From the NCBI RefSeq assembly GCF_051903065.1, contig NZ_CP178438.1: DNA of 64,000 bases. The stretch is one strand, 5' to 3'. The stretch is from Escherichia coli. Lineage in GTDB: Bacteria; Pseudomonadota; Gammaproteobacteria; Enterobacterales; Enterobacteriaceae. Under the pieces are notes generated by a model. It had not been told where the DNA came from. It made no database searches and saw nothing but the letters and a program-made list of their open reading frames with translations. This document shows, piece by piece, positions 11,540-48,120 of this stretch (its first letter is position 1; each line of letters begins with the position of its first letter). A program made the position numbers and the translations under genes.

Positions 11540-13391
<1,852 letters not shown>

Positions 13392-18844: not shown

Positions 18845-18929
18845 GCCGAAGTGGCGAAATCGGTAGACGCAGTTGATTCAAAATCAACCGTAGAAATACG
18901 TGCCGGTTCGAGTCCGGCCTTCGGCACCA
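18845..18929 (+). tRNA. leuX: tRNA-Leu(CAA)
   Basis: GCCGAAGTGGCGAAATCGGTAGACGCAGTTGATTCAAAATCAACC...GGTTCGAGTCCGGCCTTCGGCACCA, 85 nt with long variable arm and encoded CCA. Confidence 0.97.
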
Positions 18930-18942
18930 AAAGTATGTAAAT

Positions 18943-18967
18943 AGACCTCAACTGAGGTCTTTTTTTA
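18943..18967 (+). terminator. Rho-independent terminator after leuX
   Basis: AGACCTCAACTGAGGTCT hairpin followed by 7 T. Confidence 0.65.
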
Positions 18968-19115
18968 TGCCTGAAATCCAGTGTTTATCTACCTTTCCCG
19001 CTATATTAACTCTCTCAAGGTCAACCGATATCAACGTACATCTACCAACATATGTTGGTACAGATGATGGTATTTCCGGTTCGATAATGCTTGTACCAAC
19101 AGGGAGGGAATACGC

Positions 19116-20381
19116 ATGGCATTAACAGATATCAAAGTCAGAGCAGCCAAGCCAACGGATAAGCAATATAAGCTGACTGATGGTGGCGGTATGCATCTGC
19201 TTGTCCATCCAAATGGTTCTAAGTACTGGCGTTTGCAGTACCGTTATGAGGGAAAGCAAAAAATGCTGGCACTTGGGGTTTATCCTGAAATCACACTAGC
19301 GGATGCCAGAGTACGTCGTGACGAGGCGCGTAAGCTGCTTGCGAATGGCGTCGATCCGGGAGACAAAAAGAAAAATGATAAGGTTGAACAGAGTAAAGCA
19401 CGAACCTTTAAAGAAGTCGCGATTGAGTGGCATGGCACCAATAAAAAGTGGTCTGAAGATCACGCCCATCGTGTGCTAAAAAGTCTGGAAGATAATCTTT
19501 TTGCAGCGCTTGGTGAACGTAATATCGCTGAGTTAAAAACTCGAGATTTATTAGCACCCATTAAGGCCGTAGAAATGTCTGGACGTCTTGAAGTGGCCGC
19601 TCGTCTTCAGCAGCGCACTACAGCCATCATGCGCTATGCAGTGCAAAGTGGGTTAATTGATTATAACCCGGCACAAGAGATGGCTGGGGCGGTTGCTTCC
19701 TGTAATCGACAACATCGTCCCGCGCTTGAATTAAAGCGCATCCCTGAGTTGCTTACAAAAATAGATAGCTATACTGGTAGGCCGCTAACCCGATGGGCGA
19801 CAGAACTCTCTTTGCTGATCTTTATTCGGTCCAGTGAGCTGCGTTTTGCTCGTTGGTCAGAGATCGATTTCGAAGCGTCTATATGGACTATCCCACCGGA
19901 GCGGGAGCCTATTCCTGGAGTGAAACATTCCCATAGAGGCTCAAAAATGCGTACAACGCATCTAGTGCCTCTTTCAACGCAAGCTCTTGCAATTTTAAAG
20001 CAGATAAAACAGTTTTGTGGGGCCCATGACTTGATATTTATTGGTGATCACGATTCGCACAAACCCATGAGTGAGAATACGGTAAATAGTGCGTTACGGG
20101 TCATGGGGTATGATACAAAAGTAGAGGTTTGTGGTCATGGCTTTCGAACAATGGCCTGTAGTTCATTGGTCGAATCAGGTTTGTGGTCTCGTGATGCTGT
20201 TGAACGTCAGATGAGCCACATGGAGCGAAATTCAGTGAGGGCCGCGTATATCCATAAAGCAGAGCATCTGGAAGAACGCCGCTTGATGCTACAATGGTGG
20301 GCCGATTTTCTGGATGCAAACAGAGAAAAATTTATCAGTCCATTTGAATATGCAAAGATTAATAATCCATTAAAACAGTAA
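19116..20381 (+). CDS. int: P4-type tyrosine integrase
   Basis: 421-aa ORF next to tRNA; C-terminal catalytic region HGFRTMACSSL...RAAYIH. Confidence 0.9.
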   Translation: MALTDIKVRAAKPTDKQYKLTDGGGMHLLVHPNGSKYWRLQYRYEGKQKMLALGVYPEITLADARVRRDEARKLLANGVDPGDKKKNDKVEQSKARTFKEVAIEWHGTNKKWSEDHAHRVLKSLEDNLFAALGERNIAELKTRDLLAPIKAVEMSGRLEVAARLQQRTTAIMRYAVQSGLIDYNPAQEMAGAVASCNRQHRPALELKRIPELLTKIDSYTGRPLTRWATELSLLIFIRSSELRFARWSEIDFEASIWTIPPEREPIPGVKHSHRGSKMRTTHLVPLSTQALAILKQIKQFCGAHDLIFIGDHDSHKPMSENTVNSALRVMGYDTKVEVCGHGFRTMACSSLVESGLWSRDAVERQMSHMERNSVRAAYIHKAEHLEERRLMLQWWADFLDANREKFISPFEYAKINNPLKQ

Positions 20382-20704
20382 TCATCCCGGGCAAATGCCC
20401 GGGAACTTACTCCATGAATATTTTCTTTGTTAAAAAGGCAAAACGATATTAACTGATGTATTAAATGTTTACCGGATTGCTCCCTGCAGGTGGATTATCA
20501 GAATCCGCAGTTATTCGTTATTTATATATATTCAATAAAAAGAAACATCATAAAAAATCCCGCACCCACAGGGTGATGCGGGATAACTGACGTAAGGAAT
20601 GTTACCGGGATTTGGTGGTCCCTTGTGCTGATATGAATACAGGTTCTATTCTATACAGAATCCTTTTCAGTACAAGAGACTGTATTACAGTTTGCCATAT
20701 ATGA

Positions 20705-22204
20705 TTACCTGTGGTCCGGAAGAATAAGTGGCTGCGGTTTCAGACTGTCTGCCGGCACATTTTTCTCTCCGTTAAAAACCATAACGGGTTCATTATCTTC
20801 GTCTGTCAGCGGATTGAATGGCGGTATATTTTCGGTACGAATACCGGTCAGCCACTGAAAAATGCCTGCGAAATTACGGGCACTGATTTTCCTGCTGACG
20901 GACTGATGAGACGTGATGTCACTGGCGGTAATAATCAGGGGAACGCTGTAGCCCCCCTGCACATGACCATCATGATGAACAGGATTAGCACTGTCGCTGA
21001 CCGACAGCCCATGGTCAGAAAAGTAAAGCATTGCAAAGTGACGGGAATGCCGGCGAAGGATACCATCAAGCTGACCGAGAAAGTTATCCAGTTTACTGAT
21101 GCTGGCGAGGTAACAGGCAATCTTTCGGGGATACTGCTCCAGGTAATAATTCGGCCAGGAGTTAAGTCGGTCACACGGATTCGGATGAGAGCCAATCATG
21201 TGCAGGAAAATCACCTTCGGCGAGGATTTATCCGCCAGCGCACGTTCTGTTTCCTGTAACAACAACATGTCATCCGTTTTACGGGAAGCGAAGCTGCCTT
21301 TCTTGAGGAAAACGGTATGCTCCGCATCAGAAGCAATAACAGAGATGCGTGTGTCATGCTCTCCCAGTTTTCCCTGATTGGATATCCACCATGTGCTGTA
21401 TCCTGCTTTTGCTGCCAGCGCCACCACGTTGTTGCCGGAGTCAGGGTTCTGCTCATAGTCATAAATCAGTGTCCGGCTCAGGGAAGGTACGGTACTGGCT
21501 GCTGTCGATGTATAGCCGTCAATAAATAAACCGGGAGCAGTATTCAGCCACGGCGTGGTTGGCACGGGATAGCCATATACCGACATATAATCCCTGCGCA
21601 CACTCTCACCAGTAACGATAACAATCGTGTCATACAACGGCACACCCGGCAGGATTTTCCAGTTATCAGCCCCGTGCTGACTCAGTTGTTTATAACGCTG
21701 CATTTCACGCAATGTGTCAGTTGTCCCCACAACAGTTCCTTTAACCATCCGCAACGGCCAGCTGTTTACAGAGCATAATACGAATAGCAGCAGTGCCAGC
21801 CAGTTACGGTGACCGCGGTGGTGTGTCCGCCAGAAAATCACCATGAATACCAGAATCGCGGCACTGACCAGAAAATGATAAACAGGAATCATCCCGGTAA
21901 ACTCTGCAGCCTCATCAGCCGTGGTCTGCAGCAACGCGACAATAAAACTGTTGTTGATTTTACCGTACGTCATACCCGCAGGCGCATACAGTGCACAACA
22001 GAACAGAAATAACAGCGCTGTAATGGATGTGAGGGTATTTCTGTGTGCAAGGAGAAGAAGGAGAAACAGAAGCAGCACATTTCCTGTGGCATTCTTCTCA
22101 GTGTATCCGCATGCAATTGTGGTTATTGCAGAAACAACAAAAAAGAATAAAAACAATAAAATCCGGGGTGTGTTTCCCGGACAAAACAGTTTTCTGATAT
22201 TCAT
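20705..22204 (-). CDS. Membrane-anchored sulfatase-family protein (phosphoethanolamine-transferase-like)
   Basis: N-terminal multi-TM segment then soluble domain with metal-binding-type motifs (TGESVRRD, HMIGSHPNP); family call from memory of architecture only. Confidence 0.55.
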   Translation of the reverse strand: MNIRKLFCPGNTPRILLFLFFFVVSAITTIACGYTEKNATGNVLLLFLLLLLAHRNTLTSITALLFLFCCALYAPAGMTYGKINNSFIVALLQTTADEAAEFTGMIPVYHFLVSAAILVFMVIFWRTHHRGHRNWLALLLFVLCSVNSWPLRMVKGTVVGTTDTLREMQRYKQLSQHGADNWKILPGVPLYDTIVIVTGESVRRDYMSVYGYPVPTTPWLNTAPGLFIDGYTSTAASTVPSLSRTLIYDYEQNPDSGNNVVALAAKAGYSTWWISNQGKLGEHDTRISVIASDAEHTVFLKKGSFASRKTDDMLLLQETERALADKSSPKVIFLHMIGSHPNPCDRLNSWPNYYLEQYPRKIACYLASISKLDNFLGQLDGILRRHSRHFAMLYFSDHGLSVSDSANPVHHDGHVQGGYSVPLIITASDITSHQSVSRKISARNFAGIFQWLTGIRTENIPPFNPLTDEDNEPVMVFNGEKNVPADSLKPQPLILPDHR

Positions 22205-22363
22205 CGGAGTATATCGACAACATTATGATGAAGAGAACAGGATAATAAAAATCAGAAATTATCTGTAAAACAGATAACAGACAACCCTGCAGTATAATTA
22301 CTGCAGGGTGTTTCCTTTTAATTACAGAAGATAAGTAATTATTATCTTTCAGGAGCAGTTTCG

Positions 22364-41223: not shown

Positions 41224-44780
<3,557 letters not shown>

Positions 44781-44961
44781 TGACCACTACACCTTTCTCT
44801 GCCAGCCACTCATTCAGTTCATGTTCCAGAGACAGATTGATAATATCGTAATCGGACCTTGCCATTCCCGTTTCCTTAGCACATGTTTTCAGGCATGGGG
44901 ATAAAGTATAAAGAATGTCGTACTGCCGCTGCCAGAGCAATATTCCCCCCTGCTGGTTGTA

Positions 44962-45621
44962 TCAGAGATGGTATGCCGGTATTTTGTGGGTTGTTCCCGT
45001 CAGGTTATCGTGCACCTCCACGGTCGTGGTCACCACCGGCATTCCGGCCTTTCTCAGCCTCAGGACATCAGCCGCAATACGCTGACTGCCAAACCAGAAC
45101 AGGCCGTCCAGTGCAGTCACCAGTAAACCTGCCTCCAGCGCATACTTCAGCCGTTCACGGGGCGCTTTCACTTCCCTGGCAACCTGCTGATATGGCGATG
45201 ATGTGCTTTCATTCCCAACCACGCGACGAATACGGTGAGACAGATGATACCGGTATATATCCGGCACACCAGAAAGACTGGCCTTCAGGCTGTACACGCA
45301 GCCAAACCGTTTATCGTTGAACACCACATTTTTCTGGCTGATGCCCCATTCTTCACGCAGCGCGGCAATCAGTTGTGGTGTCCGGGTAAGCAGCAAGCGA
45401 AAAGGCAGCTCAAAACTGGTGACGTAATCCACATTCAACAATGCAATACGCAGTCGTTCTTCTGGCCCGGCCTCTGTCTGCCGACACTCCTCCAGAACAT
45501 CCTGCCACTGCCGGCGAAGACGGGGCGATTCGTTCCGTTCTGTAAAACAGTATTTATCTGCCAGATAATCAATTCGTGTACGCATACTGAAAAGAATTCC
45601 GTATAAAGATTCAGCAGACAA
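44962..45621 (-). CDS. Hypothetical protein (219 aa), downstream of alpA-like gene
   Basis: ORF only; may be the 3' half of a split gene with 45674..46237. Confidence 0.4.
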   Translation of the reverse strand: MSAESLYGILFSMRTRIDYLADKYCFTERNESPRLRRQWQDVLEECRQTEAGPEERLRIALLNVDYVTSFELPFRLLLTRTPQLIAALREEWGISQKNVVFNDKRFGCVYSLKASLSGVPDIYRYHLSHRIRRVVGNESTSSPYQQVAREVKAPRERLKYALEAGLLVTALDGLFWFGSQRIAADVLRLRKAGMPVVTTTVEVHDNLTGTTHKIPAYHL

Positions 45622-45673
45622 AACTTTATCAGTCTGTAAAAATTAACGGAAGAGTCGATATTTCTCCCGGTCA

Positions 45674-46237
45674 TCACCGGATGATTGTTGCAATAACCAG
45701 TGGCCTCAGAGACTGAACAGCCGTTTTTAACGCAACGTATTGCTCTGATGTATCAGGCCGGGTAACCCGAAAACACCTTTCCACCCGACATTGTCCGCCC
45801 GTATCCATCCCCCGCCAGGTCTGCTGCAGTAAATCCACCACTTGCGAACATTCTTCATCAACTGTCACACTGGCTCGCGGATGGCAGAAAAGCTCCTGGC
45901 TGAACAGCAACAGGCATCGTATTGTTGCTCCTCCATGTTGTTCCCGCAACCAGCGTAATACCACCGGCGAGGATGGACTGGCCGTGTGATTACGCTCAGT
46001 AATACGTTCGTGCACCTGTCGGTAAAAGGAAGTACAGAATGCATGAATCTGTTGCCCGTTGATATTTCCTTCTGCCGAATGGAGTGTGAAGTAAAATGCC
46101 AGCAAATGCGGCCAGTGGTCCACCGCCTGCTGAATAAAACGCCGGATGTCTCCCGGCTCTGAAATTAATGCTTCGGTTATTTGCACGAAATGTTCCTTTT
46201 CAAACCCTGTTGAATTTTGTTCAGCCGGTGCAGACAC
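45674..46237 (-). CDS. Hypothetical protein (187 aa), downstream of alpA-like gene
   Basis: ORF only; no recognised motif. Confidence 0.4.
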   Translation of the reverse strand: MSAPAEQNSTGFEKEHFVQITEALISEPGDIRRFIQQAVDHWPHLLAFYFTLHSAEGNINGQQIHAFCTSFYRQVHERITERNHTASPSSPVVLRWLREQHGGATIRCLLLFSQELFCHPRASVTVDEECSQVVDLLQQTWRGMDTGGQCRVERCFRVTRPDTSEQYVALKTAVQSLRPLVIATIIR

Positions 46238-46428
46238 ACGGGAAGGTGCGCATCAACACCGGTGTAATGCCAGTTATAAACAATGTGAATGGAATGACGA
46301 ATCAGTCAGGAAAGAGCTACAATCTGCTGGCTGACCGGAGAGGGTCAGCAGGAAGATGAACGGTAATGTCGCCAGCACCAGGGACAGGGCTGATTTCCGC
46401 AATACCAGCGCCGACATTGCAACACGTT

Positions 46429-46665
46429 TCATGCTGCTGCTCCTCGTGATTCCTCAATTCGCTGCTGCATCCACTGCTCCACTTCACTTTTGTACCAGCG
46501 GCTGCTGCGCCCCAGCTTGATGGGTTTAGGAAAATGCCCTTCACTGATCAACTTGTAAAACCATTTGTCAGTCATACCGGTGAAGCTGGTGATGTAGTTC
46601 ATGTCGATCAGGGGATCGTCGGCACGCAGCAATACACTGTCGTGGCCTGTTATTGAGGTCAACAT
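46429..46665 (-). CDS. AlpA-family phage/island transcriptional regulator
   Basis: Small HTH protein ...ITSFTGMTDKWFYKLISEGHFPKPIKLGRSSRWYKSEVEQWM, typical AlpA-type sequence; exact start uncertain. Confidence 0.7.
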   Translation of the reverse strand: MLTSITGHDSVLLRADDPLIDMNYITSFTGMTDKWFYKLISEGHFPKPIKLGRSSRWYKSEVEQWMQQRIEESRGAAA

Positions 46666-46733
46666 AGTAAGGATATCCTCTGTGCGATTTATAAAGGTTG
46701 GGCAAATGCGGGTGAATCTGCTGAACTGAGCTT

Positions 46734-47306
46734 TCAGAACTGGCCTGCTACGGGATACCAGGGGTTACCGGCGAGGCAACGGGCTTCCGGATCGCACACA
46801 CCACGACGATCGCGGGCGAAATCACTGAACGCCCAGATCAAATCTTTGAGGATGTCTTCGCAGTCCGGTGAACGACTGTCCAGCACCACATCCCGGGTTA
46901 TCTGTTTCTGGTACGGTGCCGCTTCCCCCGGTGACGCGAAGCCCAGTACGTTGCTCCAGGCATCCAGAATCAGCCGGTCCAGTTCGGGGCCGTCGAAATA
47001 CTCCTGTCTGACGCACAGCACCACGTGGTATTCCGGCTTTTCCGGATGACGGGTCAGGAGCCAGCAAAGGTCGCGTCCGGGTTTCGCATTCATCAGCGCA
47101 CTGACGGTTTCGATAAAATCCATACCAAACCAGGTCTGTCTGCTGTTGAAGGCGTTGTCATGTTCCCACGGCAGACGAAGCAGGATCCGCCGTATCCGTG
47201 AGCCGGACTGCTCACGCAGCGCACGCTCAAGGACGCCGATGACTTTGTTCTGATAAGATGGCCAGAAGGGTGCCAGGCTATAGTCGAAATAAGGGATAGC
47301 ATTCAT
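46734..47306 (-). CDS. YagK/YfjJ-family (inovirus Gp2-like) protein, paralog 1
   Basis: Start MNAIPYFDYSLAPFW at 47306; shares motifs with the other two paralogs (EYHVVLCV / FHAHAVFW / HYHVILLL). Confidence 0.55.
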   Translation of the reverse strand: MNAIPYFDYSLAPFWPSYQNKVIGVLERALREQSGSRIRRILLRLPWEHDNAFNSRQTWFGMDFIETVSALMNAKPGRDLCWLLTRHPEKPEYHVVLCVRQEYFDGPELDRLILDAWSNVLGFASPGEAAPYQKQITRDVVLDSRSPDCEDILKDLIWAFSDFARDRRGVCDPEARCLAGNPWYPVAGQF

Positions 47307-47553
47307 AAGATATGCTCCATTATGCGCAACCCACAACGCGCCCTGCCCGTGAATGAGCTGACGTGTTATGGCTTGCGGATGAGATTGATGGAATAAGTGA
47401 AGAACTGAAGCAGAACGGGAAGATAAGGGACAGAACACCGGATGCAGGTTCAGGGTGAATGATCTCCGTTGACTTCAGTTCACATCATTAATCATCGAGG
47501 TAAGTTTTTACCGACTAAGTGTTTCCGGGCCAGGAAACTCATGATTCAAACTT

Positions 47554-48120
47554 TCAGAAGTGAGGCTTACGAGGACGCCCTGCTGCAGGACGTTCAGGAA
47601 CTTCATTGCAGCCGTAGGCACACAGCCCGTCTTTTTGCTCTTCTTTCGCCAGATAATGCAGGGCACCGCGAATATTATTGATGCTTTCAGGATCGTTGTG
47701 GCGCACAGGAATGTTGATGTTGTATGTATAATGCGGCTGATATGTACAGCGGTGTGCCGAACCGCTGTTATGCGTAATAGACCGCCAGCATTCCGTAATC
47801 CGCTCCGCAAAGGGATATATTTTTTTAACCCTCTGACGATCGATCCAGAAAACCGCATGCGCATGAAAACCATGATCAACCGTCCATTCAATCACCCAGA
47901 AGAAGCCAACGATATTTTCAAATTGTTCTACCTGCTCCAGCAGCATACGCAACTGCAATTCAAGCCAGCGATGATCAGGTTGTAAGAAATCAGGCGTATC
48001 TTTCCTGTAGAAGAAATCCATGCGTAAGGCCCGCAGGCAGGAATAGCGTGCCATCATTTGATTGATGTGATTGTCAAGTAAAGCGGTAAAAAACCAGTTT
48101 GGTGTATAAGATTTAGGCAT
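47554..48120 (-). CDS. YagK/YfjJ-family protein, paralog 2
   Basis: 188-aa ORF with FHAHAVFWIDRQ His-hydrophobic-His motif. Confidence 0.55.
   Translation of the reverse strand: MPKSYTPNWFFTALLDNHINQMMARYSCLRALRMDFFYRKDTPDFLQPDHRWLELQLRMLLEQVEQFENIVGFFWVIEWTVDHGFHAHAVFWIDRQRVKKIYPFAERITECWRSITHNSGSAHRCTYQPHYTYNINIPVRHNDPESINNIRGALHYLAKEEQKDGLCAYGCNEVPERPAAGRPRKPHF

Follow-up and report, generated by a model that had tools for sequence, protein, structure and literature searches.

In the tmRNA-linked genomic islands of Pseudomonas, an integrase, AlpA, an inovirus Gp2-like protein and an HTH protein form the core, while defence systems are carried as cargo (bioRxiv 10.1101/2024.08.29.610337). 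In the K-12 prophage CP4-57, alpA is followed by yfjI (DUF3987), which encodes a protein of 469 aa. Here we analysed an alpA-containing block in a 64,000-nucleotide stretch of Escherichia coli DNA (contig NZ_CP178438.1), hereafter the window. An earlier note on this DNA had described an alpA-type gene followed, on the minus strand, by a 187-aa and a 219-aa ORF, about 50 bp apart and in different frames, and had suggested that they were either one frameshifted gene or a genuine two-gene unit of unidentified function. The ORF list bears out this layout: the longest ORFs after the AlpA gene are 187 aa (45674-46237, GTG start; ORF1) and 219 aa (44962-45621, TTG start; ORF2), these longest versions leave a gap of 52 bp, and their frames differ (46237 mod 3 = 1, 45621 mod 3 = 0). 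Our analysis indicates that ORF1 and ORF2 are very probably two autonomous genes on a mosaic integrative island at tRNA-Leu(CAA) leuX, at the point where its conserved backbone gives way to variable cargo. The island context is given by a tRNA-Leu (18845-18929) together with an integrase (19116-20381). The features of the block are the following:

47554-48120, minus strand: YagK/YfjJ ("inovirus Gp2-like") protein, 188 aa (RefSeq name and weak Pfam matches)
46734-47306, minus strand: hypothetical protein, 190 aa (RefSeq CDS)
46429-46665, minus strand: AlpA-type helix-turn-helix gene, 78 aa, of the excisionase/transcriptional activator family (ORF list, Pfam and PHROG)
46274-46432, minus strand: hydrophobic small ORF, 52 aa, between alpA and ORF1; its ATG overlaps the alpA stop (ATGA)
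45674-46186, minus strand: ORF1, probable UCP030791-family (PF27752) protein of 170 aa (187 aa when read from the farthest start, 46237)
45667-45680, minus strand: short inverted repeat at the ORF1 stop (sequence inspection)
45586-45673, minus strand: spacer of 88 bp, with stops in both gene frames and the promoter-like element of ORF2 inside
45623-45651, minus strand: promoter-like element, TTCCGT (45646-45651), 17-nt spacer, TG (45630-45631) and TAAAGT (45623-45628) (motif inspection)
44962-45585, minus strand: ORF2, ECs1377-family protein of 207 aa, predicted to bind DNA (219 aa when read from the farthest start, 45621)
44791-44865, minus strand: remnant with the first 25 codons of a 77-aa gene usually found after ORF2 (tblastn with the 77-aa protein of locus L010)

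The backbone thus runs in the order YagK/YfjJ, 190-aa paralogue, AlpA, 52-aa ORF and ORF1, and the spacer and ORF2 follow. The assignment of the AlpA-type protein rests on Pfam PF05930 Phage_AlpA (40.8 bits, E=2e-10; gathering cut-off 21) and on a PHROG match to "excisionase and transcriptional regulator" (E=7e-10). The 52-aa ORF was absent from the earlier note; the identical RefSeq record lists it as a hypothetical protein, and tblastn recovered it from related E. coli loci with 76-100% identity. Pfam and curated family searches gave no family match for it. The 77-aa-gene remnant is truncated by an IS3 remnant and is labelled "incomplete, missing C-terminus" in RefSeq. Rfam gave no match inside 44700-48400, and a search for iterons or repeats as candidate binding sites found just short two-copy matches.

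The starts of both genes most likely lie inside the longest ORFs. For ORF1, the favoured start is the GTG at 46186, giving 170 aa: a Shine-Dalgarno-like AAGGAA is located 7 nt upstream, the 100%-identical RefSeq record uses this codon, and the homologues are mostly 166-170 aa long. For ORF2, the ATG at 45585 is favoured, for a product of 207 aa; RefSeq uses it too, and the same Met begins all 23 of the 23 aligned homologues, which come from many genera. Because these shorter starts are preferred over the longest ORFs, the spacer between the genes measures 88 bp (45586-45673).

We then considered the possibility that ORF1 and ORF2 are the halves of an ancestral gene of about 400-470 aa, comparable to yfjI after alpA in CP4-57, that was broken by a frameshift. 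The two ORFs are indeed adjacent, on the same strand and in different frames, with just 52-88 bp between them, and K-12 CP4-57 does carry a single 469-aa protein at the corresponding place. In this respect the remark that CP4-type islands have one larger gene after alpA was right for yfjI, but yfjI is unrelated to ORF1 and ORF2: BLASTP against its N- and C-terminal halves gave E values of at least 5.6, and hhalign gave a probability of 0.4% with both family profiles. In related islands, a YfjI-family gene is located elsewhere, upstream of YagK.

The earlier note had proposed a search for fused homologues, and none was found, either in a set of 5.8 billion proteins or among 1.84 billion cluster representatives. 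A query concatenating ORF1 and ORF2 recovered half-length matches only, with no protein joining both products in their own frames. Among the matches listed, homologues of ORF1 measured 147-250 aa and those of ORF2 156-275 aa, and an exhaustive search of the 1.84 billion representatives with ORF1 gave 56 matches, the genuine ones all of 254 aa or less; two matches of 1777 aa and 1258 aa were spurious, being eukaryotic tandem-repeat proteins. The sole long candidate for a partial fusion (P0124, 275 aa) was rejected as well, since its opening ~85 residues translate the 3' end of ORF1 and the spacer in the third frame; this out-of-frame 5' part is joined to ORF2 by a frameshift, and the candidate is hence an artefact.

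In contrast to what a broken gene predicts, two separate genes of the same sizes are present in many genomes, the very observation that the earlier note had named as decisive against a split gene. At least 80% of the 1.8-kb block is carried by 513 E. coli genomes, and there was no single fused product among the best 30 of these 513 matches. The identical RefSeq record and 6 further E. coli loci each have one CDS of 166-182 aa and another of 207-212 aa, and the spacer measures 88 bp in 6 E. coli loci and 267 bp in strain NU14. The identical two-gene layout was found in every E. coli locus inspected, and also in the distant locus L015. Since both frames run into stops within the spacer, no one indel could bring them together. 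Their dN/dS values (~0.44 for ORF1, ~0.19 for ORF2) show that both genes are under purifying selection. With hundreds of homologues, a match to a curated family and dN/dS below 1, ORF1 and ORF2 are real genes rather than chance ORFs. Together with the same Met start in the stand-alone copies of ORF2 described below, these observations refute a split pseudogene, now an extremely improbable reading.

A fusion protein could also be produced by programmed ribosomal frameshifting or read-through; the neighbouring IS elements of the same island use programmed frameshifts according to their annotation, and the frames of ORF1 and ORF2 do differ. Yet the open frames have no overlap: ORF1 ends at 45674, and the frame of ORF2 opens only beyond the TAA at 45643-45645. 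No slippery-site arrangement is possible without crossing stops, and elsewhere ORF2 stands alone as a gene. The stop codons already exclude this explanation, to which we give next to no weight. Of the two options in the earlier note, the one with two genuine genes is correct. The genes form separable modules, with no obligate link between them, and at the level of fold their functions can now be described in part.

Are the two genes nevertheless an obligate cassette, co-transcribed and cooperating, for instance by jointly providing DNA-binding specificity in excision or replication of the island? Stand-alone copies would then be decayed remnants. Many E. coli islands keep the two genes in one order and orientation, about 90-106 bp apart, and no intrinsic terminator was called between ORF1 and ORF2 on the coding strand. 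The same order also occurs with ORF1 lineages of only about 28-30% identity (L015, and L105 with an ORF2 fragment), where it could reflect cooperation of the two. Moreover, locus L010, which apparently carries ORF2 alone, retains a short ORF1 remnant.

Against such a cassette, ORF2 is intact and strongly conserved as a stand-alone gene in about 78 Enterobacterales species, among ordinary chromosomal genes and with highly varied neighbours, and tblastn detected no ORF1 there. Conversely, ORF1 is found without ORF2 at three loci (L009, L012 and L013), and at these and two others (L102 and L106) unrelated genes directly follow it. Homology breakpoints were located at window positions 45723 and 45652, and at loci without an intact ORF1 homology begins at about 45652; recombination breakpoints lie between the genes. 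At locus L101, identity is 77% for ORF1 and 98% for ORF2. Taken together with a promoter-like motif that moves with ORF2, these data make an obligate cassette unlikely, and we infer that the two genes often lie side by side without needing to, and form neither one gene nor an obligate complex.

The motif is the promoter-like element in the spacer, which ends 37 nt before the ORF2 ATG. We analysed 79 ORF2 loci, comprising the 78 species loci and this window. In 35 of them, the 100 nt preceding the start contained TGnTAAAGT, and in 26 the full pattern was present, TT[CT][CT]GN-N16-18-TAAAGT, with its end 29-41 nt ahead of the start. Mononucleotide shuffles gave 0.1 and 0.01, respectively, an enrichment of roughly 300-fold or more. 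The -35 hexamer of the element is poor, and a scan with a generic sigma-70 consensus called no promoter or terminator in the spacer on the coding strand. Our model suggests that ORF2 would be transcribed from its own promoter of the extended -10 type in the spacer, TTCCGT-N17-TGATAAAGT. The motif could instead be an operator.

Concerning the ORF2 product, it is 100% identical to RefSeq WP_032216521.1, named ECs1377 family protein (phrog_24243), and it matched the NF052300 equivalog model over positions 1-190 of 190 with 320.2 bits (E=3.4e-96; cut-off 190 bits). Next to a conserved N-terminal region it has a C-terminal winged helix-turn-helix, which we compared with HTH_39 (PF14090; winged-helix fold, gathering threshold 21.3 bits), and its structure was modelled with moderate confidence (pLDDT 72). 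ORF2 is a predicted winged-helix DNA-binding protein. We hypothesize that it would regulate transcription, with its own gene and adjacent ones, often cargo, as probable targets. Sequence searches of the PDB gave nothing significant for ORF1 or ORF2, and we found no literature description of the ECs1377 or UCP030791 family.

For ORF1, RefSeq gives the 100%-identical protein the name UCP030791 family, and PF27752 ("putative phage-derived protein") is assigned to homologues between 95% and about 30% identity; for those at 80-95% the assignment was precomputed. These matches argue strongly, if indirectly, for membership in a family that is small, with 56 clusters at 50% identity among the 1.84 billion representatives. 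Comparison of the ORF1 family profile with YagK/YfjJ by hhalign gave a probability of 96.6% (E=6.5e-10, 149 columns). Distant ORF1 homologues have weak PF11726 matches; ORF1 itself has no Pfam match at E<=0.01, to the YagK/YfjJ families or to any other. The protein was modelled with high confidence as a Rep/palm-like alpha-beta fold. ORF1 is thus a diverged, distant paralogue of the YagK/YfjJ "inovirus Gp2-like" proteins.

In the YagK/YfjJ family alignment, H86, H88 and Y156 are invariant. The His-x-His pair aligns to Thr-Ile-Arg in ORF1 (x-x-Arg in the ORF1-family consensus), and Y156 aligns to Ser. The ORF1 family alignment contains no invariant Tyr, and the family does not have the C-terminal Lys/Gly/Cys-rich segment of YagK/YfjJ. 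From this alignment with YagK/YfjJ proteins, themselves only putative nucleases, we infer that ORF1 may have lost catalysis. It would then assist the AlpA/YagK module in maintaining and excising the island, as a DNA-binding or accessory factor without catalytic activity. One could argue that ORF1 is active, as a nuclease or a replication initiator, through residues other than the canonical His-x-His and Tyr: the Rep/palm-like model is of high confidence, Asp23-His24, Arg65, Arg78 and Arg104 are polar residues conserved across the family, and the homologous YagK/YfjJ proteins retain His-x-His and Tyr. However, the substitution of the histidines by Thr and Arg and of the tyrosine by Ser, the family-wide lack of an invariant Tyr and of the C-terminal segment, and a rather relaxed dN/dS make this quite improbable.

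The two neighbouring genes upstream of AlpA were also compared with YagK/YfjJ. The 188-aa protein has the His-x-His and the conserved Tyr intact, and its Pfam matches (REP_ORF2-G2P, E=9e-5; YagK_YfjJ_C, E=7e-4) are both below the gathering scores. The 190-aa protein, in which His-Tyr-His is replaced by Glu-Tyr-His, gave an hhalign probability of 78.5% (E=1.7e-5, 151 columns) and is probably another diverged paralogue with the YagK/YfjJ fold. It shows weak BLASTP similarity to ORF1 (E=0.006), and its match to the ORF1 profile was not supported (2%).

The cargo beside the block varies by strain and includes Zorya II, MADS, BREX, Dnd, CDI and T6SS genes, and PADLOC returned no defence-system match for ORF1, ORF2, the 190-aa protein or YagK. 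Speculatively, and with a low probability in our own estimate, the ECs1377 protein might be a boundary regulator with its own promoter/operator at the edges of Enterobacterales variable regions, controlling the adjoining competition and defence cargo (T6SS, CDI, Zorya, MADS, BREX), while the UCP030791 protein might be a domesticated Rep-like DNA-binding partner tying this control to the AlpA excision module. With ORF1 probably in UCP030791/PF27752 and ORF2 in ECs1377/NF052300, both genes fall into families already catalogued, and leuX islands of this type are common in E. coli. Removing a suspected pseudogene, with both genes intact, is an ordinary finding that matters little. What our analysis adds is a tie, by profile and fold, between UCP030791 and the Rep-like YagK/YfjJ proteins, without their presumed catalytic residues, as well as a winged-helix fold and a conserved upstream motif for the ECs1377 proteins. 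As the block adjoins a slot whose defence or competition systems differ among strains, it could help to delimit cargo hotspots.

In comparison with known systems, ORF2 is a full member of the ECs1377 family (NF052300) with no difference from it, its length and start being those of homologues from many genera. With YagK/YfjJ (PF11726, PF23343 REP_ORF2-G2P) and HUH-type Rep proteins, ORF1 shares profile similarity and the Rep/palm-like fold; unlike them it has no His-x-His pair, conserved Tyr or C-terminal segment, and it is probably a non-catalytic relative. The likeness to yfjI of CP4-57 is that of a gene placed immediately after alpA in a tRNA/tmRNA-linked island, whereas neither ORF1 nor ORF2 resembles it in sequence or profile. 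In contrast to the Pseudomonas tmRNA-linked islands (bioRxiv 10.1101/2024.08.29.610337), the host here is one of the Enterobacterales, the site is leuX, and the proteins are only distantly related. The logic of the layout is shared: a terminal tyrosine integrase, a conserved block of AlpA, Gp2-like and HTH proteins, and variable defence cargo.

An AlpA-type gene is followed on the minus strand by two ORFs of 187 and 219 aa, here called ORF1 and ORF2, which lie about 50 bp apart in different frames. The ORF listing confirmed this layout, described in the earlier note, with a gap of 52 bp between the longest ORFs. The minus-strand order is YagK/YfjJ (an 'inovirus Gp2-like' protein), a 190-aa protein, AlpA, a 52-aa ORF, ORF1, ORF2 and the start of a 77-aa gene.

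Features of the block and of the surrounding island
18845-18929, tRNA-Leu(CAA) gene leuX
19116-20381, tyrosine integrase, 421 aa
42691-44214, reverse transcriptase/maturase ORF of the group II intron
44218-44304, group II intron (Rfam Intron_gpII match)
44962-45621, minus, longest ORF of ORF2, 219 aa, TTG start (ORF listing)
45674-46237, minus, longest ORF of ORF1, 187 aa, GTG start (ORF listing)
46274-46432, minus, 52-aa hydrophobic ORF between alpA and ORF1; its ATG overlaps the alpA stop codon (ATGA)
46429-46665, minus, AlpA-type protein, 78 aa (Pfam Phage_AlpA, 40.8 bits against a cut-off of 21; PHROG excisionase/regulator)
46734-47306, minus, 190-aa hypothetical protein between YagK/YfjJ and AlpA
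47554-48120, minus, YagK/YfjJ, first in the local order

Both genes are likely shorter than their longest ORFs. For ORF1 the GTG at 46186 is the probable start, giving 170 aa: AAGGAA lies 7 nt 5' of this codon, a 100%-identical RefSeq record uses it, and the length is typical of most homologues. The probable ORF2 start is the ATG at 45585 (207 aa): RefSeq uses it, and its Met opens every one of the 23 homologues aligned, which come from many genera. Therefore, the real spacer is 88 bp. The 52-aa ORF is 76-100% conserved across related E. coli islands and annotated only in some records. ORF2 is ordinarily followed by a 77-aa gene; in the window its first 25 codons remain, and the rest is cut off by an IS3-family transposase remnant (41767-44783), itself interrupted by the group II intron.

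The idea that ORF1 and ORF2 are one frameshifted gene was refuted, and a genuine two-gene arrangement, the other option raised in the earlier note, was supported. The 1.8-kb block is covered to 80% or more in 513 E. coli genomes, and separate genes of the same sizes were found in other genomes: all seven homologous loci opened (L001, L002, L003, L098, L099, L100 and L101) carry two annotated CDSs of 166-182 and 207-212 aa, neither with a pseudogene flag. Six of them have an 88-bp spacer, and strain NU14 has one of 267 bp. Among the best 120 homologues per ORF, lengths were 147-250 aa for ORF1 and 156-275 aa for ORF2. The search for fused homologues found none: ORF1, run exhaustively with HMMER against 1.84 billion cluster representatives, had just 56 matches, the genuine ones at most 254 aa, and a concatenated ORF1+ORF2 query revealed no protein joining both products in their own frames. 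Two long HMMER matches were eukaryotic repeat proteins rather than real homologues. The sole long fusion candidate, P0124 (275 aa), was rejected as a frameshifted ORF2 5' end in the third frame. It is a recurrent ORF2 variant (Logan assemblies, 30 member sequences) with a frameshift near codon 20, from which gene callers extend upstream in the third frame, mimicking a partial fusion.

The spacer itself argues for the same reading. ORF1 stops at 45674 and a TAA at 45643-45645 closes the ORF2 frame, therefore no single indel, frameshift or read-through joins the two. Purifying selection acts on both genes, with a mean pairwise dN/dS of 0.44 for ORF1 and 0.19 for ORF2. The expectation of a single larger gene after alpA in CP4-type islands holds for CP4-57, where yfjI (DUF3987, 469 aa) takes this place, but yfjI is unrelated to either ORF1 or ORF2, and a YfjI-family gene is located elsewhere in related islands. 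These results support two genes, both belonging to already catalogued families, to which our fold-level assignments and a motif upstream of ORF2 are modest additions.

The two genes are also separable. ORF1 occurs without ORF2 in L009, where a ProQ/FinO gene and dnd genes follow, and precedes unrelated genes in L012, L013, L102 and L106. ORF2 stands alone (longest ORFs of about 207-260 aa) in about 78 Enterobacterales species, including Citrobacter, Kosakonia, Serratia, Enterobacter, Klebsiella, Rahnella and Erwinia, among highly varied, mainly ordinary chromosomal genes; tblastn found no ORF1 at these loci. Partial E. coli matches stop at 45723 or start at 45652, and in L101 ORF1 is 77% and ORF2 98% identical to the window. 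Recombination separates ORF1 from ORF2. That the pair is co-transcribed and works together as an obligate two-component unit is accordingly unlikely, each gene being found without the other, yet it keeps a small probability, and the two may be functionally linked, because ORF1-then-ORF2 adjacency recurs across loci. L015 carries an ORF1 homologue of only about 28-30% identity and, 106 bp further on, an ORF2 homologue (64% identical) starting at the window start-Met position, apparently with GTG; in L105 an ORF1 homologue precedes an ORF2 fragment, with a BREX system beyond it; and L010, at first taken as ORF2 alone, keeps a short ORF1 remnant.

RefSeq names the protein identical to ORF1 'UCP030791 family putative phage-derived protein', and its homologues carry PF27752. 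The family is small and its contexts are alike: YagK/YfjJ, AlpA, one or two zinc-ribbon proteins, UCP030791, then cargo. In the profile alignment with YagK/YfjJ, the invariant His-x-His (H86, H88) and Tyr (Y156) of YagK/YfjJ align with Thr-Ile-Arg and Ser of ORF1. YagK/YfjJ has His-x-His, the conserved Tyr and a C-terminal Lys/Gly/Cys-rich segment, and ORF1 is without all three; no Tyr is invariant across its family, whose members stop short of that segment. Motif conservation and weak PF23343 similarity suggest that YagK/YfjJ proteins may be active HUH-type nucleases. We infer that ORF1 derives from a Rep-like domain but is non-catalytic, and that it probably still binds DNA or acts as a scaffold within the island's AlpA/YagK module. 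A third paralogue is probably the 190-aa neighbour (hhalign against YagK/YfjJ, 78.5%; His-Tyr-His replaced by Glu-Tyr-His). The block would hold three diverged YagK/YfjJ-fold paralogues (46734-48120 and 45674-46186, minus), in which the presumed catalytic motif is lost step by step: His-Ala-His plus Tyr in YagK/YfjJ, Glu-Tyr-His in the 190-aa protein, and Thr-Ile-Arg with no Tyr in ORF1.

ORF2 belongs to the NCBIfam equivalog 'ECs1377 family', matching at full length with 320 bits (cut-off 190), and to phrog_24243. This family is highly conserved, with 60-72% identity between genera and an invariant block, ERLRIALLNVDYVTSFELPFRLLL. We examined 79 ORF2 loci (78 species loci plus the window) and observed TT[CT][CT]GN-N16-18-TAAAGT upstream of ORF2 in 26, ending 29-41 nt from the start codon, and TGnTAAAGT, with TG two bases before the second hexamer, in 35; shuffling predicted 0.01 and 0.1, respectively. 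The window copy comprises TTCCGT (45646-45651), 17 nt and TGATAAAGT (45623-45631), and the homology shared with loci in which ORF1 is not intact starts at about 45652, right at the motif. We read the motif as a putative promoter of the extended -10 type, alone or combined with an operator, that travels with ORF2; it may instead be an operator, and a generic consensus scan did not call it. The form TT[CT][CT]GN-N17-TGnTAAAGT recurs far above chance across many Enterobacterales genera (L017-L092). Separately, in a minority of species loci (L005-L008, L027, L042, L050 and L076; Kosakonia, Citrobacter, Serratia and Yokenella), ECs1377 homologues lie directly 5' of type VI secretion clusters and point in the same direction as tssB/tssC.

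The positions of tRNA-Leu(CAA) and the integrase place the block inside a mosaic, IS-riddled leuX island, whose part of the window is 99.4-99.99% identical to E. coli NZ_CP136025.1. Its CP4-type end modules are a GTPase, DUF932, an antirestriction protein and a CbtA/YeeU toxin-antitoxin pair. After leuX and the integrase, the first cargo comprises phosphoethanolamine transferase and outer-membrane protein genes (18845-22215; annotation of the near-identical record). The island also carries a 146-aa H-NS family paralogue between IS256 remnants (49931-50371, minus) and the isrC sRNA (41332-41454). Ysr276 antisense RNA and two naRNA4 copies match at 12636-12830 and 11629-11802; all these RNAs exceed Rfam gathering scores.

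Genes downstream of the block vary by strain: type II Zorya in L002, a MADS system in L003, cdiBA in L098, a DNA methyltransferase in L099, KAP NTPases with T6SS remnants in L010 and L011, BREX in L105, and dnd genes in L009, where ORF2 is absent. This suggests that the slot downstream of the AlpA/UCP030791/ECs1377 block is a cargo hotspot for defence or competition systems. ORF1 and ORF2 themselves matched no PADLOC defence model. Pseudomonas islands have been described that combine an integrase, AlpA, Gp2-like and HTH proteins with defence cargo (bioRxiv 10.1101/2024.08.29.610337), and the E. coli leuX block with its variable cargo resembles them.
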